Source: an uncultured Dehalococcoidales bacterium (GTDB lineage Bacteria > Chloroflexota > Dehalococcoidia > Dehalococcoidales > UBA5627). Taken from it: a stretch of 36,116 nt of DNA. Within the stretch, counting starts at the first letter, position 1. Each line of letters opens with the position of its first letter. The position numbers and the translations under genes are program-made. The DNA is taken from positions 1 to 36,116 of the forward strand of contig CAZJVO010000002.1 in NCBI GenBank assembly GCA_964549815.1. The letters are read 5' to 3'. Below, in pieces: positions 23,397 through 36,116 of the stretch. The notes under the pieces were generated by a model. That model ran no database searches. It saw only the letters and a program-made list of their open reading frames with translations, and had not been told where the DNA came from.

Positions 23397-23825
23397 CTAG
23401 GCTCCCTTAGCTTTCTTTTCCCGCTTGCTGCCATATTTGCTGCGTCCCTGCTTGCGGTTAGCTACGCCACTTGTATCCAGTGTCCCCCTTATAATATGAT
23501 AGCGGACACCGGGTAAATCTGGAACACGTCCTCCACGAATAAGTACCACAGAGTGCTCCTGCAGCTCATGACCCTCACCAGGAATGTAAGCCGTAACTTC
23601 CATATGATTGGTAAGCCTCACTCTGGCAATCTTACGCAATGCAGAATTAGGTTTTTTAGGAGTAGTGGTCTTTACCTGTATGCAAACACCGCGTTTCTGA
23701 GGAGACCCCTCCCCCTTAACCATCCTGTTCTTCAATGCATTATAGGTAAACCTGAGTGCCGGTGTCCTGGTCTTCTTGGTACCCTTCACGCGTCCTTTTC
23801 TAACTAACTGATTAACTGTGGGCAA
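23397..23825 (-). CDS. rpsL: 30S ribosomal protein S12
   Basis: (M)[11 protein letters not shown]...[10 protein letters not shown] signature. TTG start 6 nt after AAGGGGGA. Confidence 0.97.
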
Positions 23826-23950
23826 CTTATCCCCCTTAGCCTAACAATTTCAAAGGATGAGCTTTTGGCTCATCCTTTACTCGCCAATCGAATCGGCCAG
23901 AAATTTATCCAGCCAATTGCAAATGCTGAGGTGGCTAGCAACAGCATCTT

Positions 23951-23980
23951 AGTCTAACACAGGAATAAACGCTGTGTCAA
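23951..23980 (-). promoter_or_regulatory. candidate promoter of the rpsL-led ribosomal super-operon
   Basis: The minus strand reads TTGACA (23980-23975), an 18-nt spacer, then TAGACT (23956-23951). This would give a ~120-nt structured leader with hairpins at 23851-23880 and 23883-23897. Confidence 0.4.
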
Positions 23981-24042
23981 TAACCCTGGGCTCGTAAAAT
24001 TAACAAACAATTAGCAGATATAATAGCAGAAAATACCCCACC

Positions 24043-24071
24043 TTGACAAATATTTTTCGCAGTGATATATT
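24043..24071 (+). promoter_or_regulatory. strong sigma70-type promoter of the aromatic amino-acid operon
   Basis: TTGACA (24043-24048), a 17-nt spacer, TG at 24063-24064 (extended -10), then TATATT (24066-24071). Confidence 0.65.
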
Positions 24072-24108
24072 CCCGTTATAGTAAAAACAATGTGGAAGCA
24101 GAAAAATA

Positions 24109-24189
24109 ATGTTGTATAAGAATACCTCTTACTACTACTCTTATTATATGTTTACCTGGCGCAGCGACTGCGCCGTGGGGGGTATTTGA
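24109..24189 (+). CDS. candidate 26-aa aromatic-rich leader peptide MLYKNTSYYYSYYMFTWRSDCAVGGI
   Basis: Hand-translated. 6 Tyr, 1 Phe and 1 Trp, with 7 aromatic codons among 10 consecutive codons (24130-24159). Lies between the promoter and an intrinsic terminator upstream of the DAHP synthase gene. Weak SD-like GGAAG 10 nt upstream. Confidence 0.55.
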   Translation: MLYKNTSYYYSYYMFTWRSDCAVGGI

Positions 24190-24225
24190 TTGGTCTGCTG
24201 AGCGGTAAATTATAGTAAGTCTTTT

Positions 24226-24252
24226 AAAATCCTCCCTCGGGAGGATTTTTTT
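24226..24252 (+). terminator. intrinsic terminator (attenuator) in the aro operon leader
   Basis: aatcctcc-ctcg-ggaggatt stem-loop followed by ttttttt (24246-24252). It ends 68 nt upstream of the DAHP synthase start. Confidence 0.8.
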
Positions 24253-24319
24253 GTTATAAAAGATGGATTTTATCCTAACCCGGGTTTAGAATAGATATGA
24301 AACAGGAGGAATGGCACAG

Positions 24320-25393
24320 ATGATAATAATGGAAAAGGATGCTACCACAGAGCAGATCAACGATGTGATTACCGAAATAGAAAAGCATGGCTTAAGAGTA
24401 GATGTCTCTAAAGGGGAATTCAGGACGATTATAGGGCTCATCGGAGACGAGAGCAAGATATCGTTTACCAACCTGGCGCTCATGCCAGGGGTAAAAGAAG
24501 CCAGAATGGTTGAAACACCATATAAACTCATCAGCCGCGATTATAGTGAGCCTGTTTTAGGAAAAGATGAAACCCGCATCGTTAAAGTGGGGGATGTCCG
24601 TATAGGCGGGGACGAACCCATAATTATGGCCGGACCCTGTGCCGTGGAAAGCAAGGAGCAGGTTTTTCGCATTGCAAAGGAGGTCAGGGCAGCTGGAGCC
24701 AGGATTCTAAGAGGCGGAATATATAAACCCCGGAGCTCGGTGCATTCTTTTCAGGGGCTGGGTTCACGCGGTGAAGCCGAAGCTCGAGAAGCGCTCGAAT
24801 GGCTCTGCGCCGCCGGACATGAATATGGCATGCCGGTTATGACCGAGGTGAGAGGTGAAGACCAGCTGGAACTGATAGCAGAATACGTGGATATAATACA
24901 AATCGGTGCCAGAAACATGTATAATCAGGACCTGCTGAGCAAAGTCGGCAGAACCGGCAAACCTGTACTTTTTAAAAGGCATTTCGGTGCCAGTGTCGAG
25001 GAGTTCCTGTCTTTTTCTGAGTATATAGTGGCCGAGGGGAATAAAGATGTTATCCTCTGCGAACGGGGTATCGTACCTGTAGGCAAGGGCAACAGCTATA
25101 CGAGATACACCCTGGACCTGGGAGCAGTACCTGTGATTCGAAGAGAAACTTATCTTCCTATTATAGTCGACCCCAGCCACGCCGCAGGGCGTCGTGACCT
25201 GATATTCGATATGAGTTGTGCAGCTATCGCCATCGGTGCTCATGGATTGGTTATAGAAACACACTATAATCCCAAGGAAGCCATTGTAGATGCGAAGCAG
25301 ATGATAACCCCTGATGAGCTAAAAGATGTCATCGATGCCTCGCTGCAAATCAGCAAAATAATCACCCCCTATAAAAGAAAACAGATGAGATGA
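24320..25393 (+). CDS. aroF: 3-deoxy-7-phosphoheptulonate (DAHP) synthase, type I-beta with N-terminal ferredoxin-like regulatory domain
   Basis: KDO8PS-like catalytic core (IMAGPCAVES, KPRSS, DPSH) preceded by a ~70-aa beta-alpha-beta domain, as in Thermotoga-type enzymes. The ATG at 24320 is 10 nt after AGGAGG; the ORF-track ATG at 24311 is only 1 nt after it. Confidence 0.9.
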   Translation: MIIMEKDATTEQINDVITEIEKHGLRVDVSKGEFRTIIGLIGDESKISFTNLALMPGVKEARMVETPYKLISRDYSEPVLGKDETRIVKVGDVRIGGDEPIIMAGPCAVESKEQVFRIAKEVRAAGARILRGGIYKPRSSVHSFQGLGSRGEAEAREALEWLCAAGHEYGMPVMTEVRGEDQLELIAEYVDIIQIGARNMYNQDLLSKVGRTGKPVLFKRHFGASVEEFLSFSEYIVAEGNKDVILCERGIVPVGKGNSYTRYTLDLGAVPVIRRETYLPIIVDPSHAAGRRDLIFDMSCAAIAIGAHGLVIETHYNPKEAIVDAKQMITPDELKDVIDASLQISKIITPYKRKQMR

Positions 25394-26466
25394 AGGCACT
25401 AAAAGTAGAACTGGGAGATAATAGAAGCTACGATATACTCATCGGCAGCGGCTTGCTTGAGCGGGCGGCAAACCTTTTACAGGAAGCCTTTTCAAGTAAA
25501 AAATCCGTTATCATCACCAATCCGATTGTTAAAGAGCTATACGGCGACCGGCTGAAAGAGACCCTGGCCGACAGTGGATTGAGCCCTTCTCTGCTGACCG
25601 TACCCGACGGAGAAGCGTATAAATCTCTGGACACCGCCGGCAGACTATATACGGAGTTAACCGAATGCTTTGCCGAACGTAGTACCCCGATACTTGCCCT
25701 CGGAGGCGGCGTTATAGGAGACCTTGCCGGTTTCGTGGCATCCACCTACATGCGCGGGGTGCCGCTGGTACAGATGCCCACCACCCTGCTGGCGCAGGTC
25801 GACAGCAGCATCGGGGGCAAGGTAGCGGTAGACCATGGAAAGCTCAAAAACAAAATTGGCACCTTCTATCAGCCACGGCTGGTAATTTCAGATACGACAA
25901 CGCTGAAAACCCTGCCTAAAAAAGAGTTCGCCAACGGCATGGCCGAGGTCATCAAGAGTGCTATTATCAGGGATAAAGCCTTCTTTACCTTTATTAAACA
26001 AAAACTTGATAGAATTAACAGGATGGACAACGATGTTATAGAGGAAATGATTTTCCGTACAGCAAGTATAAAAGCCTCTATCGTGATGCAGGATGAGAGG
26101 GATACCGGACTAAGGAATATTTTAAATTTCGGGCATACTGCAGGGCATGCTATCGAAGCGGTGTCGGACTTTAAAATAGCCCATGGGCAGGCAATAGCCA
26201 TCGGAATGATAATCGAAGCCAGAATCTCTCAAAAAATGGGGACCTTCGAAGAGGATGAATTGAAAGACCTCGAGAAGTTGATATCGGATGTCGGACTGCC
26301 AACGAGGATGCCGGACATAGATAAAGATAGTGTTCTGCGAGCAATGCAGCATGATAAAAAAAATGCAGGCGGGAAAATCAAATTTGCTCTGCCCAGAAAT
26401 ACAGGAGACGTTTATATAACCGACGAGGTGGAGCTTGCAACAGTGAAGGAGGCAATGGAAGAATAG
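25390..26466 (+). CDS. aroB: 3-dehydroquinate synthase
   Basis: 358 aa with LGGGVIGDLAGF nucleotide loop and metal-binding HTAGHAIE. 4-nt overlap with the upstream gene. Confidence 0.95.
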   Translation: MKALKVELGDNRSYDILIGSGLLERAANLLQEAFSSKKSVIITNPIVKELYGDRLKETLADSGLSPSLLTVPDGEAYKSLDTAGRLYTELTECFAERSTPILALGGGVIGDLAGFVASTYMRGVPLVQMPTTLLAQVDSSIGGKVAVDHGKLKNKIGTFYQPRLVISDTTTLKTLPKKEFANGMAEVIKSAIIRDKAFFTFIKQKLDRINRMDNDVIEEMIFRTASIKASIVMQDERDTGLRNILNFGHTAGHAIEAVSDFKIAHGQAIAIGMIIEARISQKMGTFEEDELKDLEKLISDVGLPTRMPDIDKDSVLRAMQHDKKNAGGKIKFALPRNTGDVYITDEVELATVKEAMEE

Positions 26467-27120
26467 ATGAGAACTCCCCGCATTTGTGCTACCATTACCG
26501 ACCGGAATGCTGATATCTCACAGGCCGTCGATATAGCGGACTTATTTGAGATTCGCATCGACCTGGCGGGTAGCGGCTGGCAGGAGACGGCATCCAGACT
26601 GCCGAAACCATGGGTTGCATGCAACCGCTCAAAAGAAGAGGGCGGAAGCTGGCACGCCAGCGAAAATCAGAGGACAGAGGAATTGCTTAAAGCGCTTCGA
26701 ATCGGAGCCGACATAATCGATATAGAACTGGCTGCTCCCGAACTGGATAAAACCGTTCCCGTTATCAAAAGAAGAGCCGAATGCCTGATATCATCCCATA
26801 ACATGACTGAGACACCTGAGTTCGACGAATTGAGAGCTATCGTATTAAGGCAGATTGCCGCCGGCGCCGATATATGTAAAGTGGTTACCTTTGCCGTTAA
26901 AGCTGAAGATAATATAACTGTTTTGCGTTTGATTCCAGAATTCCAGGGCAAAAGGATTATCGCCTTTGCCATGGGAGAATCAGGGCTGGCCAGCCGAATT
27001 CTCTGCCCATTGGTGGGAGGTGAATTTACATATGCTTCTCTTGAGAGAGGAGCCGAATCCGCACCGGGGCAGATAACTGTAAAGGAACTGCATGAAATAT
27101 ACCGGATGGTGATGAAATGA
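26467..27120 (+). CDS. aroD: type I 3-dehydroquinate dehydratase
   Basis: 217 aa with a FEIRIDL-type N-terminal strand and a length and pattern that fit type I DHQase. Sits at the pathway-order position. Confidence 0.85.
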   Translation: MRTPRICATITDRNADISQAVDIADLFEIRIDLAGSGWQETASRLPKPWVACNRSKEEGGSWHASENQRTEELLKALRIGADIIDIELAAPELDKTVPVIKRRAECLISSHNMTETPEFDELRAIVLRQIAAGADICKVVTFAVKAEDNITVLRLIPEFQGKRIIAFAMGESGLASRILCPLVGGEFTYASLERGAESAPGQITVKELHEIYRMVMK

Positions 27121-27989
27121 TATCGAAGATTTCTGCCAGCACCCAAATCTGCGGTCTTATCGGAGACCCCGTGGAGCACAGCCTTTCCCCAGCAATGCAC
27201 AATGCCGCTTTTAAAAAAACCGGATTGAATTTTGTTTACCTGCCGTTTAAAGTAACCGCCAAAAACCTCCCGGGAGCCATTACCGGATTAAGAAGCCTGA
27301 ATTTCCGCGGCTTGAACGTAACTATCCCCCACAAAGTAGCCGTTATTCCACTCCTCGACGAACTGGACCCGGCAGCAAAACGGATAGGCGCTATCAATAC
27401 GATTGTTAACGATAACGGCCATCTCAAGGGCTATAACACCGATGCCGCCGGATTTCTCAAATCGCTGTCTGTAAAAGACATTAACCCCACAGGGAAAAGG
27501 GTTGTTATACTCGGGGCAGGAGGGGTTTCGAGGGCTATTACGTTTTCACTGGTGGAGCAGGGGGCGGAAATAACCATTCTGAATCGCAGCCAGAAGCCGG
27601 AATGGGTGGAGAAACTGGCAATAAATACACCCCTATCCTCAACAAACAGGGTACAAGTGATGGAGTTAAATGACGCCAATCTGCAATCGGCACTAAAGCA
27701 TACCGATATTCTGATTAATGCTACCAGCGTTGGCATGAACCCAGATGTGGGTAAATCACTGGTTCCACAGGAATTGTTCAGACCTGAAATGGTGGTCTTT
27801 GACGTCATCTATAACCCGGAAAAGACCAGATTACTGGCAGATGCTGATAAAGCCGGGGCCACAACTATCGGGGGGCTGGATATGCTGGTGTGGCAGGGCG
27901 CCCTGGCTTTCGAACTGTGGACCGGAATCAAAGCTCCGGTGGAGGCTATGAAAAAAGCGGCTGTAAATATATTATCTGCGCAGGCTTGA
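27117..27989 (+). CDS. aroE: shikimate dehydrogenase
   Basis: GLIGDPVEHSLSPAMHNAAF, NVTIPHK, NTD and the Rossmann loop GAGGVSRA. Confidence 0.95.
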   Translation: MISKISASTQICGLIGDPVEHSLSPAMHNAAFKKTGLNFVYLPFKVTAKNLPGAITGLRSLNFRGLNVTIPHKVAVIPLLDELDPAAKRIGAINTIVNDNGHLKGYNTDAAGFLKSLSVKDINPTGKRVVILGAGGVSRAITFSLVEQGAEITILNRSQKPEWVEKLAINTPLSSTNRVQVMELNDANLQSALKHTDILINATSVGMNPDVGKSLVPQELFRPEMVVFDVIYNPEKTRLLADADKAGATTIGGLDMLVWQGALAFELWTGIKAPVEAMKKAAVNILSAQA

Positions 27990-28057
27990 TTAAGGCAAAT
28001 TCACCAATGATGACAGAATAATAAGCCCGGTATAACAAAACTGATATACAGCCAGGG

Positions 28058-28085
28058 TTGTTAAAATGCTTCATATTATTATAAT
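28058..28085 (+). promoter_or_regulatory. possible internal promoter in the aroE-aroK gap
   Basis: TTGTTA (28058-28063), a 16-nt spacer, then TATAAT (28080-28085), within a 128-nt AT-rich gap. Sequence motif only. Confidence 0.3.
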
Positions 28086-28117
28086 ATGTATATAAGTTAC
28101 TATTTGAGATTAAGAAT

Positions 28118-28651
28118 ATGAAAACGAACATAGCTTTAATAGGATTTATGGGCACAGGCAAGACGACCATCGGGAAAACACTTGCCCAAAAACTCGGCAA
28201 AACATTTGTAGAGATAGATGCTCTTATCGAACAAAAAGCCGGAAAATCTATTGCCGATATCTTTAAAGAAGATGGAGAAATCGCCTTCAGACAGCTTGAA
28301 ATCGAGGTTACAAAAGAAATCGCCGAGAAGGATAACCAGGTCATAGCCTGTGGTGGCGGCATAGTATTAAACAGAATTAATATCGATAGGCTGAAGAGAA
28401 ATGCCGTTATCGTATTGCTGACAGTATCATTCGATGTCATCGAAAAAAGGGTTTCCGCCGGCAGCCGCATCAGGCCCCTGCTGGAAGGGAGCACCGACAG
28501 GGCAAAAACCATCAGGGAATTGATGGAGTTCAGGCAGCCATTTTATGACAGGGCTGCAGATATAAAAATCAACTCCTCAAACATCGGAATCGAAGCTACC
28601 GCAGATTTAATAATAGATAGGGTTAGAGAGAATGAAAGTAAGAATCAATAA
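28118..28651 (+). CDS. aroK: shikimate kinase
   Basis: P-loop GFMGTGKTTIGK and GGG(I)V motif; 177 aa. Confidence 0.93.
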   Translation: MKTNIALIGFMGTGKTTIGKTLAQKLGKTFVEIDALIEQKAGKSIADIFKEDGEIAFRQLEIEVTKEIAEKDNQVIACGGGIVLNRINIDRLKRNAVIVLLTVSFDVIEKRVSAGSRIRPLLEGSTDRAKTIRELMEFRQPFYDRAADIKINSSNIGIEATADLIIDRVRENESKNQ

Positions 28652-29888
28652 AAGCGAATTGCGCGGGCGGGTTGTCGCCCCCCCATCCAAAAGTTATACC
28701 AGCCGCAGCCTGATGTGTGCTGCACTGGCAAGAGGGAAAAGCCGGATTATCAATCCACTCTTATCCGATGACACGGAAGCCGCCAGTGAAGCGCTGGGGA
28801 AGGTGGGTATCAGAATAGAAAAAAAAGACGGCTACTGGGAGGTATTCGGTGGCCGTTTTCATGCGCCGGAAGGCGATATTTATTGCCGTGAATCCGCGGC
28901 AACCCTGAGATTTATGACAGCTCTATCAGCAATCATCCCCGGGAAATGCCGCCTGGTTCCAGGCCCCTCACTCGCCCGCCGCCCTATCGAGCCACTTATC
29001 ACAGCTATGAATAAATTAAAAATTAAATGCTACATGGAAGGCTCAACAGTGGTGGTTGATGAGGGAAAGTTCTGGGGGGGAAACGTAAGCATGAGAGGAG
29101 ATGTCAGCTCTCAATTTGTTTCTGCGCTGCTGTTTTTATGCCCGGTGGTAGAAGCAGGTTTGAACATCCGCCTGACCACCCCACCCGCATCAGGGCCTTA
29201 TATCGAGATGACACTCGGTTGTATGAAAGAGTTCGGTATAGATATGATTGCTTCTCCCACCCTTCAATTCTTTACCAGCGATTTCAGACCGTATAAAACT
29301 GCTGATTATACAGTTGAAGGGGATTGGTCTTCGGCTTCCTATTTGCTGGCAGCAGGAGCGATGACCGGAAGCATTGCTGTAACCGACCTTAACCTTAATA
29401 GCCTTCAGGCAGACCGGGTTATAGTAAACCTCCTCGGTAAAATGGGAGCGTCAATGCAAACCAAAAGAGATGTTGTTACCGCCAGCCGTTCTAATTTCAA
29501 AGCTCTCAAAGCGGACCTGACCGATTGCATCGACCTCCTGCCAACCATAGCCATGGTAGCAGCGATGGCTGAGGGGCAAAGTCTCTTCTACGGCATCAGG
29601 CGCGCCAGATTCAAAGAATCCAACCGTGTTACCGCCATCAAGGAAGGGCTAAAAAGGATGAACATCCCCGTAGTTGAAAAGGATGATTCTCTTGTCATTA
29701 CCGGGGGAAAGCCGGTTGGCGCCACTATCAACAGCTACGGCGACCACCGCATCGCTATGGCTTTCAGCCTGCTGGGGGCAGCCGTAGGTAACACGACCAT
29801 AGAGGGAGCTGAAAGCGTTTCCAAAACATACCCCCAGTTCTGGCAGACACTTGAAAGCCTCGGCGCAAAGGTAGAATACGATGTCTAG
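28632..29888 (+). CDS. aroA: 3-phosphoshikimate 1-carboxyvinyltransferase (EPSP synthase)
   Basis: 418 aa with [15 protein letters not shown] and DHRIAMAF motifs. Confidence 0.95.
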
Positions 29889-30969
29889 CAGCCTCGGTAA
29901 GCTATTCACCGTAACCAGCTTCGGTGAAAGCCATGGTAAACTGGTCGGGATTGTTATCGATGGCTGCCCCGCCGGGCTGCCAATAGACGAGGGGATGATC
30001 CAGTGCGAACTGGACAGACGCAAACCGGGTAAAGATGCTTCTTCGACCAGCCGCAATGAGGAAGACAGAGTAGAGGTTCTTTCAGGTGTTTTCAATGGAT
30101 ATACCACAGGCGCCCCGATATGTATGGCAGTCTGGAATAAAGATGCCCGTTCGGATAATTATGATAGAACACAGATATTGAGGCCGGGACACGCCGATTA
30201 CACAGCTTATATCAAATACGGGGGCTTTGCAGACCCCCGTGGCGGCGGTCGTTTTTCCGGGAGGGTTACGGCCGGATTCGTAGCGGCCGGTGCTATTGCC
30301 CGTCAGTTATTATCCATTGTCAAAACCGAGATTATAGCCCATACTATTGAGATAGGTGGAATAGTTGCCAGACCAGTGGATATGGAGTGCATAAGACAAA
30401 ACGCAAACAGAAATCCCCTGCACTGTGCCGATTCCGAAGCCGCATCCAGGATGATGGCCGCCGTAGAAAATGCCAGAGCTGAAGGAGACAGCCTTGGGGG
30501 TGTTATCGAGGGCATTGCTGTCGGGTTGCCAGCAGGACTGGGGGAACCCATTTTTGATAACCTTGATGGTGAAATGTCAAAAGCCCTGTTTGCCATTCCG
30601 GCAGTTAAAGGCGTGGAATTTGGAGCAGGGTTTAATGCCGCTCGATTGAGGGGCTCCGAAAACAATGACCCCTTCGATAATGAGGATGGACGGATAATTA
30701 CCAGAACCAACAGCTGCGGCGGCATACTGGGCGGAATCAGCAATGGGATGCCGCTGGTGGTAAGGGTAGCCATAAAACCGACACCCTCCATAGCTAAGAA
30801 GCAGGACACCATTAATTTGAAAGATATGACTGGAGCCGAACTGGAGATAAAGGGCAGGCACGACGCCTGTATTGTCCCCAGAGCCGTACCGGTTGTGGAA
30901 GCTATGATGTCCATAACATTATGCGATTTTGCACTCAGGGCAGGAATACTGCCGGGGATAATAAAATGA
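29881..30969 (+). CDS. aroC: chorismate synthase
   Basis: FGESHG, RPGHADY and GGGRFSGR signatures. Confidence 0.96.
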
Positions 30970-32033
30970 ATTTAGAAGAAATCAGATTGAAAGTCGACGA
31001 AGTAGATAAAAAAATAGTCGAGCTGATAGCAGAGAGAATCACCCTTGCCGAACAGATAGGCAGGCTGAAAAGACAGGAAGGACGCCAGATCGAGGATAAG
31101 CAGCGGGAAGAGGTAATCCTCGATAAGATAAAAGAGACAGCTGCCCAAAAGGGCTTGAAGCCAGCAGATATCGAACGCATTTACCGACAGATATTTATCG
31201 TTTCCAAAGGTATACAGGGGGCTTCTGTTGCTTTTCAAGGGGAAATCGGCGCCTATAGCGAGGAGGCGGCCATTAACTTCTTCGGAGCAGGTGTACAGGT
31301 CAAACCCTGCGAAACACTGGAGGATGTCTTCAAAGCCGTCGAACAGGGAGAAGTTCAGTTCGGCATTGTTCCCGTCGAAAACTCCATCGAAGGCAGCATC
31401 AGTAAGACATATGACCTGCTGCTGGAATCTCCATTAAAAGTATGCGGAGAAATCGAATTAAGGGTGTCTCATTGTTTAATCGCCAATCCCGGAGTCACAC
31501 TGGATTCGATAAAAAAGATCTATTCGCATCCTCAGGCACTGGGACAATGCCAGGCGTTTATCAAGCATCTTAAGTGCGAGCTGGTGCCCAGTTACGACAC
31601 CGCCGGCAGCGTTAAGATGATTAAAGAAAAGAAAATCATAGATGGTGCTGCCATCGCCAGCCGCCGTGCCGCCACTATATATAATATGAATATCATCAAT
31701 TGCGGCATCGAGGACAATCCCAATAACTTTACACGTTTCTTCGTTCTCTCCAAAGAGGATGCGCCGCCATCGGGGAATGACAAGACCTCGCTGGTGCTCT
31801 CGGTAAGGCACAAACCAGGGGCATTGTTCGAATGTCTGAAACGACTGGCGGAAAAAGACATCAATATGACCAAGCTGGAATCCCGCCCCACTCGCCAGAA
31901 ACCCTGGGTTTATAACTTCTACCTGGATTTCGAGGGACACCGGCTGGATGCCAGAGTGCAGGAGATGCTGAAACAACTCGAAGACTACACGATATTTCTT
32001 AAGGTATTAGGCTCTTACCCTAAAGCCAGATAA
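30966..32033 (+). CDS. pheA: bifunctional chorismate mutase / prephenate dehydratase (P-protein) with C-terminal ACT domain
   Basis: N-terminal AroQ CM helix ([20 protein letters not shown]), PDT domain ([15 protein letters not shown] motif in NNFTRFFVL) and ACT (ESRP). The start is placed at ATG 30966, forming an ATGA overlap with the aroC stop. The ORF-track start at 30921 lies inside aroC. Confidence 0.92.
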
Positions 32034-32132
32034 AAGAAGAACGATTAACTTTAAAAGCAAAACCGCCTTTATTTCCACTAATATCCTTCGACACGCTCAA
32101 GGCGAGCGGAAATAAATTGCCCTGCTATCGCT

Positions 32133-32242
32133 CAAAGCCGTTCGTACCCTTTCCCGATATATCGGGACTCAGGATGCTCGGATATTATCAAAGCCGCTCG
32201 TGGATGAGTCCCGACAAGTCGGGATCGAACCATAGCGGCGAC
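32133..32242. repeat. mosaic of R3-family palindromic modules
   Basis: caaagccg.tcgt occurs twice. tttcccgatatatcgggactc (32150-32170) faces the inverted gagtcccgacaagtcggga (32207-32225). 32190-32242 is the reverse complement of 2459-2507. Confidence 0.7.
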
Positions 32243-32261
32243 GAATAAAAAGACTTGCGCC

Positions 32262-32304
32262 AAAATCCCTCTCAATCTCCCTTTGCAAAGGGAGAAATGA
32301 CTAT
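32262..32304 (-). repeat. repeat family R2, inverted copy (contains the perfect palindrome tctccctttg/caaagggaga)
   Basis: The reverse complement matches 35598-35642 almost base for base. Confidence 0.85.
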
Positions 32305-32340
32305 CATGTCAGGCTATTTATATATTCCATAAAATTAATA

Positions 32341-32426
32341 CCCTTCGATTACTCTAAAAACCCCTTTACGTTTAAAATTGGACTTATTCTCCCACTTTGT
32401 AAAAGGGGGAATAAGGGGGATTTTAC
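32341..32426 (-). repeat. repeat family R1 (long form), inverted copy
   Basis: The reverse complement aligns with 35477-35565 (aaatcccc..ttcccc..caaagtgg.agaat....ttaaacgtaaag). Stem positions are changed but still pair (cttattc/gaataag versus gattc/gaatc). Confidence 0.75.
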
Positions 32427-32568
32427 ATGCTATGCTCAATAATAATTTTGCAAGCATTTAAAATCGAGCAGAGTAAACATAATTTTTAAGTGCACTAATA
32501 TAAGCCTTTTGAACTGTGTCAGCCCTGAATATGGTATCATTATAAAAAAATCGGGAATAATAAAAACA

Positions 32569-33450
32569 ATGACAAATATAAACAAAGTAGCCATCATCGG
32601 CGGTTCGGGGAAGATGGGACAATGGTTTGCCCGATTGCTTTTGCAGGAAGGCAAAGGCGTAACCATTATCGGCAGGAACAGGGATAAACTGGAAGAAGTA
32701 AAAAACAGGCTGGATGTTGCCGTCAGTACCAAAATCAGTGATATAAAGCTGGCGGATGCCGTGATTATCTCGGTGCCGGTAGATTGCTTCGAAGACATAG
32801 TAAAGCAAATGAGCCCTTACACCTATTTCGGGCAGCTCATTTTCGATATTACATCGGTCAAATCGGTGCCCGTCGAGCTGATGCACCGCTATATTACGAA
32901 CGGACAGATTCTGGGTACACATCCGGTATTCGGTCCCGGCGCTCGCAGCCTTACCAACCAGAACTTCGTGCTGACGCCGACGACGCCGCAGGAGGCAAAA
33001 CTGGCACAGGGGTTAGTGGATTTCCTGCGAAAAAGAGAAGCCAGAGTGCAGGTTATGACACCTGCCGAACACGACAGTATGATGTCGGTTATACTGGGGC
33101 TGGCTCATTTCATCGCTATCGTCTCGGCGGATAGCCTTGCCGGGCTGGAAAAGCTGAAAGAAATGGAATCCATCGGAGGCATCACATATAAAGTGTTGTG
33201 GACACTGGTGGAAAGCGTAATCTCGGAAGACCCCGATTTATATGCTTCGCTCCAGATGAACCTGCCGCAGCTACCGGATTTCCAACAGCAATTCCTTAAA
33301 AATACTGCCGAATGGACAGAGCTTGTGAAGAATAAAGACAGGGAGGAGTTCGTTCGCAGGATGAAAGCCATCCATGACCAGCTGGCAGCCAAAAGTGCCG
33401 ACTTCGGCAAAGCCTACGATAATATGTATAAAATAGCAGAGGGGCTTTAG
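32569..33450 (+). CDS. tyrA: prephenate dehydrogenase
   Basis: Rossmann loop VAIIGGSGKMGQWF, HPVFGP motif and a helical C-terminal domain. The ATG at 32569 (MTNINK) is preferred. The ORF-track start at 32509 adds 20 non-conserved-looking residues, and neither start has a good SD. Confidence 0.88.
   Translation: MTNINKVAIIGGSGKMGQWFARLLLQEGKGVTIIGRNRDKLEEVKNRLDVAVSTKISDIKLADAVIISVPVDCFEDIVKQMSPYTYFGQLIFDITSVKSVPVELMHRYITNGQILGTHPVFGPGARSLTNQNFVLTPTTPQEAKLAQGLVDFLRKREARVQVMTPAEHDSMMSVILGLAHFIAIVSADSLAGLEKLKEMESIGGITYKVLWTLVESVISEDPDLYASLQMNLPQLPDFQQQFLKNTAEWTELVKNKDREEFVRRMKAIHDQLAAKSADFGKAYDNMYKIAEGL

Positions 33451-35776: not shown

Positions 35777-36116
<340 letters not shown>

Follow-up and report, generated by a model that had tools for sequence, protein, structure and literature searches.

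A predicted aromatic leader-peptide attenuator upstream of the DAHP synthase operon in Dehalococcoidia

The aromatic operon and its leader region

The DNA analyzed here is a stretch of 36,116 nucleotides (nt) from an uncultured Dehalococcoidales bacterium (contig CAZJVO010000002.1 of assembly GCA_964549815.1), referred to below as the window. It contains a set of genes for aromatic amino acid synthesis preceded by a candidate transcription attenuator at 24043-24252 on the forward strand, in the order promoter, leader open reading frame (ORF), nested hairpin, run of G residues (G-run) at the stop codon, intrinsic terminator and DAHP synthase gene. The genes that follow on the same strand (24311-33450), as assigned by Pfam and the ORF map, are those for DAHP synthase, aroB, aroD, aroE, aroK, aroA, aroC and pheA (CM-PDT-ACT, ending at 32033), and then, after a gap of 475 nt, tyrA (prephenate dehydrogenase, 32509-33450). 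The region had been picked out from the letters of the window as a trp-style attenuator with four mutually exclusive segments and a leader peptide rich in Tyr, Phe and Trp (the original prediction). Our reading of 23800-24500, together with a promoter and terminator scan and an ORF check, found every one of its elements at the position it had assigned. The N-terminal allosteric domain it had proposed for DAHP synthase was identified in Pfam as the ferredoxin-like regulatory domain PF18152, which is followed by PF00793.

The promoter is of the sigma-70 type (24043-24071) and has TTGACA at 24043-24048, a 17-nt spacer, TG at 24063-24064 and TATATT at 24066-24071. As foreseen, it is strong by sequence: the promoter scan gave an 11 of 12 match to consensus with an extended -10, and transcription is predicted to start at about 24078. 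The only intergenic forward-strand ORF with an ATG start in this region is the leader ORF (24109-24189), which has 26 codons, encodes MLYKNTSYYYSYYMFTWRSDCAVGGI and ends in a UGA stop at 24187-24189. Its Shine-Dalgarno sequence is weak (GGAAG at 24094-24098, 10 nt upstream). Within the ORF, the ten codons at 24130-24159 (YYYSYYMFTW) include five for Tyr, one for Phe and one for Trp, the seven aromatic codons originally counted there, and we propose that this run is the site at which the ribosome stalls. By itself the run is only modestly unusual and not decisive, as a six-frame reading of the 36 kb contains one other stretch with at least seven aromatic codons in ten, in the region antisense to fusA.

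A second, out-of-frame mini-ORF of nine codons (24090-24119, AUG at 24090, MWKQKNNVV, stop at 24117-24119) overlaps the start codon of the leader. No counterpart of its ATG was found within the 20 nt 5' of the leader starts of relatives, and it is probably incidental.

Conservation of the leader among relatives

The leader was compared with 50 related loci from Dehalococcoidia/Chloroflexota that had enough upstream DNA and whose DAHP synthases are 92 to 62% identical to that of the window, the closest relative being at 92%. By these enzyme relatives the window belongs to Dehalococcoidales in Chloroflexota. Family counts and the MAFFT alignment given below cover 51 leaders. The layout of promoter, short aromatic ORF, hairpin, G-run, stop and terminator was retained in all 50 related loci, with peptides that are otherwise strongly diverged (e.g., MISQKFNAYYYFYYFFWRQSAGEGFV and MLLNIDPRGQIYYAYFYFTFSWRHKPHPGGS). 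Each of the 50 has an ORF of 23-36 codons, located about 160-320 nt 5' of DAHP synthase, with at least five aromatic codons in ten. At the RNA level the order in the family is aromatic run, UGG, small hairpin, G-run, stop, spacer and terminator. The TTGACA hexamer is exact in 49 of 51 members, and the end of the -10 element mostly lies 20-38 nt 5' of the leader ATG.

The codon content of the leaders is equally consistent across the family. They have between 5 and 10 aromatic codons each, among which a Trp codon is near-universal, with means of 4.5 Tyr, 3.1 Phe and 1.3 Trp. The aromatic share of residues is 31% in the leaders versus 6% in the operon proteins. Codons starting with TT within the aromatic runs are, in frame, TTY in 117 cases versus TTR in 2, and the other two frames are unrestricted. 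Because this bias is confined to the reading frame, it is a coding signature and not a nucleotide motif. The alignment of related upstream regions that the original prediction had proposed thus retained the aromatic run; the placement of the stop codon was kept as well, and the antiterminator and nested hairpin described below were found to covary. Judged from these sequences, the recurrence of the whole architecture with covarying helices is far beyond chance.

The nucleotides directly after the G-run form a (C/U)AUGA motif that is conserved as such in many lineages (alignment columns ~40-50; 24183-24192 in the window). The motif provides the UGA stop in most lineages; in a few of the related loci (L022, L028) the reading frame through it differs and the leader extends 20-28 nt further. 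A second, very short ORF might moreover begin at the AUG within the motif; in leaders of the L029 type it would read AUG-AGC-UAG.

The DAHP synthases of Bathyarchaeia (L052-L074) are 58-61% identical to the Dehalococcoidales enzyme, an identity that suggests inter-domain transfer of the gene. About 120-160 nt 5' of DAHP synthase these archaeal loci have a tRNA gene in divergent orientation, along with T-rich DNA that is conserved and resembles a promoter (GGTTAAATTTTACTTTTTCGG ... TTTAAAT). FYFFG-type ORFs in this DNA were considered as leaders and rejected, as they fall in the T-rich promoter and tRNA-flanking DNA, and they served as a negative control. The G-run and terminator architecture was not seen by eye upstream of DAHP synthase in the Bathyarchaeia.

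Alternative pairings of the leader RNA

The intrinsic terminator (segments 3 and 4) is at 24226-24252, as first described. It reads AAAAUCCUCC / CUCG / GGAGGAUUUU, with a hairpin of 10 pairs at 24226-24249, a U-tract of 7 U at 24246-24252 and an energy of -14.8 kcal/mol. In 47 of 51 leaders a script found a terminator-like hairpin whose tail is U-rich, and in the remainder it was found by eye. The terminator was left out of the covariation counts because MAFFT sets its 3' arm in three different registers.

Segment 2 (24172-24188) has the G-run core GGGGGG at 24177-24182 plus flanks and can pair either with segment 1 or with the 5' arm and loop of the terminator. The second of these pairings, originally proposed between the G-run and CCUCCC (24231-24236), is the antiterminator; its target is that stretch of the 5' arm together with the loop, and the window duplex has an energy of -18.3 kcal/mol. 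In the MAFFT alignment 84.4% of cells were paired for this helix, and its covariation score was 0.241 versus 0.155 +/- 0.012 for shuffles, none of 500 shuffles scoring as high. Controls in which the partner was slid reached at most 0.116. Unprompted, RNAalifold gave the antiterminator as the consensus structure of the region from hairpin to terminator, with compensatory changes in 4 of 7 pairs. Variants read by eye included GGGGAGGG:CCCUCCCC, GAGAGG:CCUCUC (L015) and GGGGG:CCCCC (L026), and in the flanks CUU...AAG, CUG...CAG and CCC...GGG. Taken sequence by sequence, the duplex had a median of -19.4 kcal/mol and a z-score below -2 in 45 of 51 leaders, and a permutation test of cognate versus non-cognate partners in 27 lineage representatives gave z=-6.4. 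Pairing in this way, the predicted antiterminator and the terminator exclude each other.

The nested hairpin GGCGCAG-CGA-CUGCGCC (24158-24174, -12.8 kcal/mol) begins at the Trp codon and ends three bases before the G-run core at 24177 and one base before segment 2 as originally delimited (24175-24186). This 7-bp hairpin is present as predicted and covaries in the family: 81.6% of its cells were paired, versus at most 53% when it was slid, and none of 500 shuffles matched its score. It may act as a pause hairpin for RNA polymerase or as a stacking partner of the antiterminator.

The remaining helix is that between segments 1 and 2 (1:2). Segment 1, AGAAUACCUCUUACU (24119-24133), would be the anti-antiterminator strand, pairing with segment 2 when free of ribosomes. 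The 12-position pairing described for its core, AAUACCUCUUAC (24121-24132) with GUGGGGGGUAUU (24175-24186), is correct in the window, with 9 Watson-Crick and 3 G-U pairs, and the duplex of 24119-24133 with the G-run region has an energy of -16.8 kcal/mol (z=-3.7 versus shuffles). Helices like 1:2 were found in about half of the lineages, directly 5' of the aromatic run and with differing sequences. Examples read by eye are AAUACCUC:GGGGGGUAUU in the window, GACCCUCGUGGG:CCCGGGAGGGUC in L009, AAACAUCUCUC:GAGAGGUGUUU in L015 and GAGUCUCCCAG:CUUGGGAGGCUUU in L048. The permutation test on the 27 lineage representatives gave z=-4.07 (p=1e-4) for 1:2. In the L029-type clade both duplex z-scores and duplex energies indicated that there is no 1:2 helix. 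We conclude from these comparisons that 1:2 is probably a lineage-specific helix, real for the window and some half of the lineages; the place given to it in the trp-style logic may hold for these, and it does not extend to the L029-type clade. Leaders with a stop codon far from the G-run showed only a trend towards a stronger 1:2 (rho=-0.25, p=0.08).

A long-range helix of 24139-24157 with 24204-24220, joining the codon run to the spacer before the terminator, was considered as a general anti-antiterminator and rejected. It is present in the minimum free energy fold of the window and is the helix aligned by the Rfam Phe_leader model. In the family its mean per-sequence z-score was -0.1, with values below -2 in 2 of 51 leaders; its cognate test gave p=0.0075, which could reflect an interaction with GC content.

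Folding and the position of the ribosome

The original prediction had called for a comparison of the two folded states. For the window RNA from 24078 to 24252, the minimum free energy fold was at -50.3 kcal/mol, a fold forced to contain 1:2, the nested hairpin and the terminator at -48.4 kcal/mol, and one forced to contain the hairpin and the antiterminator at -39.9 kcal/mol. We also folded RNA that was cut before the 3' arm of the terminator, with a ribosome footprint of -15 to +12 around the A site masked. In this truncated RNA the structure did switch with the position of the ribosome: a footprint on the Tyr codons gave the hairpin plus an extended antiterminator as the best fold, and one on the stop codon covered the G-run, so that no antiterminator formed.

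Full-length equilibrium folding in other clades with strong terminators also gave the terminator in all ribosome states. The L029-type clade has an antiterminator of -23 to -29 kcal/mol and a terminator of -8.3 kcal/mol. At full-length equilibrium the probability of its terminator was ~0 when the ribosome was stalled or the leader was untranslated, and 0.94 with a ribosome at the stop codon.

The spacing of the elements is in keeping with these states. The last aromatic codon ends a median of 16 nt before the G-run (51 sequences), and a stalled ribosome would therefore leave the G-run free. The stop codon, placed beside segment 2 by the original prediction, follows the G-run by 4 nt in the window and by no more than 12 nt in 39 of 51 leaders (median 8).

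Proposed mechanism and alternative explanations

Based on the anatomy of the element, its conservation, the covariation of the antiterminator and hairpin and the constraint on its codons, we consider it very probable that the region is a ribosome-mediated leader-peptide transcription attenuator. It would sense charged tRNA-Tyr, tRNA-Phe and tRNA-Trp and gate read-through into aroF-aroB-aroD-aroE-aroK-aroA-aroC-pheA, and the match between the products of the operon and the amino acids encoded by the leader supports this reading. Transcription would begin at about 24078 and a ribosome would initiate at AUG 24109. When aromatic aminoacyl-tRNA is scarce, the ribosome would stall within 24130-24159, covering segment 1 (24119-24133) and exposing the G-run (24172-24188), which would pair with the 5' arm and loop of the terminator (~24227-24239) before the 3' arm is made. 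This pairing would block the terminator and RNA polymerase would continue. Under good supply the ribosome would reach the UGA at 24187-24189 and occlude the G-run, so that the terminator at 24226-24252 would form and transcription would end. If the leader is not translated, segment 1 and the G-run would form a helix enclosing the nested hairpin, and the terminator would again form. The stalling, the kinetic timing, any pausing role of the hairpin and the regulatory response itself are what we infer from this arrangement.

Several observations weigh against this attenuator. At equilibrium the terminated fold of the window is about 9 kcal/mol more stable, in every ribosome state; termination is thus the thermodynamic default, and read-through would have to be kinetically trapped during transcription. 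In 12 of 51 leaders the distance from the G-run to the stop codon exceeds 12 nt. The 1:2 helix is missing in about one third of the family and had no column-wise covariation in a fixed register in a 16-sequence MAFFT alignment, in which close relatives were invariant and distant ones used other registers. Neither the window leader nor most of its relatives have more than a weak Shine-Dalgarno sequence, if any. Finally, a conserved promoter-like site 3' of the terminator (24264-24292) could bypass attenuation. On most points, through conservation, covariation and geometry, the trp-style logic originally proposed was nevertheless supported.

The same RNA might instead report general translation capacity, or the coupling of transcription to translation, and not the supply of aromatic amino acids. 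Occlusion of the G-run at the stop codon would work with any slowdown of translation, and the L029-type element is predicted to be ON whenever its G-run is uncovered. We nonetheless regard this as very improbable, as the enrichment of aromatic residues in the leaders relative to the operon proteins is conserved in all lineages and matches the products of the operon, which is hard to explain without amino acid specificity. It is very unlikely, in our estimation, that the ORF is incidental and that the UAU/UAC/UUU repeats or the hairpin are recognized by an RNA-binding protein acting in trans (of the TRAP or PyrR kind) or by a small-molecule riboswitch. The repeated U-A-Y and U-U-Y triplets superficially resemble the repeats bound by TRAP, the Shine-Dalgarno sequence of the leader is poor, and the archaeal loci illustrate that T-rich DNA can mimic aromatic ORFs. 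Yet in all 51 leaders, despite their divergence, the run is in frame with an ATG and a stop codon closely follows the G-run. The restriction of the wobble position to pyrimidines (117 to 2) and the interchange of Tyr, Phe and Trp codons, with no nucleotide motif kept, likewise speak against this reading. No complex, conserved aptamer-like fold was present beyond the one small hairpin, and there was no riboswitch or T-box match in Rfam at E up to 10.

A peptide with a function of its own, such as a membrane micropeptide or the precursor of a RiPP (a peptide made on ribosomes and modified after translation), with the hairpin and U-tract merely as its terminator, would account for the conserved position of the ORF, and aromatic-rich peptides can be membrane-active. 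This explanation is extremely unlikely, given that the peptide is unconserved outside the aromatic run, varies in length from 23 to 36 residues and changes its C-terminal frame among relatives while the RNA motifs persist. Moreover, the conserved C-terminal G-G/G-E-G residues fall on the G-run of the RNA, whose covariation with the terminator arm is described above, and the leaders matched no peptide family in Pfam or NCBIfam. We give almost no credence to the idea that an intergenic ORF in AT-rich DNA and a commonplace terminator-like hairpin came together by chance. The window does hold the other aromatic-rich stretch described above, and consensus-like promoters and terminators occurred at near-background rates in our scans, but the architecture is conserved and covaries over 51 sequences in lineages down to 62% DAHP synthase identity, comparative data that effectively refute chance.

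Within the attenuator reading, we put forward tentatively, and with a little more doubt than confidence, that the leaders form an undescribed class-wide attenuator family, the first found for Chloroflexota, in which one leader reads three aromatic amino acids and the wiring depends on the lineage, being four-segment in some and a minimal three-element form in others. In this proposal the window clade and about half of the lineages would have a four-segment, trp-like switch with the nested hairpin as an extra component. The L029-type clade would have the minimal three-element switch, in which the terminator loop CCCC appears to exist only for pairing with the G-run. Because this clade lacks 1:2 and combines a strong antiterminator with a weak terminator, its switch would be ON by default, with the terminating ribosome as the sole anti-antiterminator.

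Relation to known regulatory elements

No Rfam 15 family reached its gathering threshold for the element in the window or in 20 relatives. The best resemblance was to RF01859, Phe_leader (32.7 bits, E=0.0018, well below the gathering threshold of 55 bits), and was aligned over the aromatic codons and terminator; that this family is itself a leader-peptide attenuator speaks for our reading. The Rfam scan of 23700-24500, originally suggested as a means of excluding a riboswitch or T-box, found no match to families of either kind at E up to 10. With a cutoff of E up to 10, five representative leader peptides fell into no leader-peptide family of Pfam or NCBIfam; the lone match at that level was a weak and unrelated one to Kei1 (E=0.041). 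A full-text literature search found no aromatic leader described for Dehalococcoidia/Chloroflexi, with the limit that the broad attenuation survey of Lopatovskaya et al. 2010 (PMID 20198868), which it did not cover, might mention one. The element was not mentioned in the main text or in one supplementary file of a non-coding RNA survey that included D. mccartyi 195.

The closest precedent in design is aroR of Corynebacterium glutamicum, a leader with a Phe-Tyr-Phe sequence upstream of aroF that, according to the summary of Neshat et al. 2014 in PMC11802643, attenuates aroF. In the same account read-through is said to rise via ribosome stalling under aromatic limitation, and aroR is reported to be responsive to Phe and not to Tyr. 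The two systems would share a leader-peptide attenuator directly 5' of a DAHP synthase gene and a mixed cluster of aromatic codons. Unlike aroR, which is actinobacterial and has three aromatic residues, the leaders described here are from Chloroflexota/Dehalococcoidia, have 5 to 10 aromatic codons, with the window leader being Tyr-dominated, and precede an operon for the shikimate pathway and pheA. With this precedent (PMC11802643), the concept of a leader of mixed aromatic codons ahead of DAHP synthase is not a new one, and the novelty claimed for it by the original prediction was overstated.

The element resembles the E. coli trp leader (trpL, the Yanofsky model) in its predicted four-segment logic, with 1:2 as putative anti-antiterminator, 2:3 as antiterminator and 3:4 as intrinsic terminator, with regulatory codons in or beside segment 1 and a stop codon placed such that a terminating ribosome blocks segment 2. 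In trp the terminator is also thermodynamically stronger than the antiterminator, implying kinetic control. Unlike trp, which has two Trp codons, the window run has seven aromatic codons of three kinds, a covarying hairpin is nested in 1:2, segment 1 is at the upstream edge of the codon run and one large clade is without 1:2; there is no sequence similarity between the two. The gammaproteobacterial pheL-pheA leader (Phe_leader) shares an aromatic-codon leader followed by a CCUCCC...GGGAGG U-tract terminator. It differs in that pheL is Phe-only and controls the single gene pheA, and the helix aligned by its Rfam model, between the codon run and the downstream spacer, is not clearly conserved in our family. 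Like the T-boxes of aromatic genes in Firmicutes and some Chloroflexi, the element would provide RNA-level terminator/antiterminator control that responds to the charging of cognate tRNA. T-box leaders are more than 200 nt long, whereas the element is about 145 nt with an ORF, has no specifier-loop or T-box motif and is not a tRNA-binding leader. We would class the element as a new family of an established mechanism, classical ribosome-mediated attenuation; the family is kept throughout Dehalococcoidia, and its 1:2 helix is lineage-specific.

Other features of the locus

Upstream of the leader, rpsL, rpsG and fusA are in divergent orientation. Rfam matches at gathering level were found in three of the relatives just upstream of, and divergent from, the promoter of the aro leader: the pan motif RF01749 in L016 (417-503) and L021 (2609-2694), and the Moco/tungsten riboswitch RF01055 in the D. 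mccartyi locus L040 (2542-2661), all on the reverse strand. The 3' end of a 23S rRNA gene is at the edge of the window (35777-36116, reverse strand; Rfam LSU_rRNA_bacteria, 325 bits) and could help in placing the window taxonomically.

The DAHP synthase ORF is listed from ATG 24311, and a second ATG (MIIMEK...) is at 24320. Since 24311 is just 1 nt after AGGAGG (24304-24309), and 24320 has a spacing of 10 nt and agrees with the start in relatives (ATGATA), the true start is probably ATG 24320. The promoter-like site at 24264-24292, between the terminator and the DAHP synthase gene, has TGGATT, a spacer of 17 nt and TAGAAT. Its hexamer regions, TATGGATTT and GATATAGAATAGA/TACAAT, are kept in the close relatives L001-L011 and L073, with a variable spacer, and the site could serve attenuator-independent basal expression or be a conserved element of the 5' untranslated region.

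Further downstream, a promoter-like TTGTTA-16-TATAAT at 28058-28085, within the AT-rich gap of 128 nt between aroE and aroK, may be an internal promoter for aroK-aroA-aroC-pheA. The same gap has an aromatic-looking stretch, YYYNMYISYY, at 28074-28103, which is in no ORF with a start codon. The gap between pheA and tyrA (32034-32508) is non-coding and has many nested inverted repeats, for example 32152-32171/32205-32224 and 32262-32284/32402-32424, and a palindrome at 32276-32295. It had no Rfam match at E up to 1; it may be a structured RNA, or else a small element of the mobile or repeat type. Because of this 475-nt, repeat-filled gap, co-transcription of tyrA with the operon is uncertain. 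The original prediction had placed a complete shikimate-to-Phe/Tyr operon under the leader. The operon genes are indeed downstream of it; control of the whole operon does not follow, in view of the promoter-like sites after the terminator and before aroK and of the distance to tyrA.

Implications

The class Dehalococcoidia includes the organohalide-respiring Dehalococcoides, of importance in bioremediation, and abundant subsurface and marine lineages, and to our knowledge very little is known of its gene regulation. The element is present in an assembly of Dehalococcoides mccartyi (L040), which makes the prediction testable in a cultivated organism. It would be an annotatable element, for which a covariance model could be added to Rfam. 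The understanding of the attenuation mechanism itself is unchanged by it; the four-segment and three-segment variants would form a natural series for studies of how attenuators evolve. For the biology of these bacteria, the element would be an RNA-level control point for the supply of Tyr, Phe and Trp, in addition to the allosteric control that the ferredoxin-like domain of DAHP synthase probably exerts, and a conserved leader-peptide attenuator would imply that transcription and translation are tightly coupled in Dehalococcoidia.

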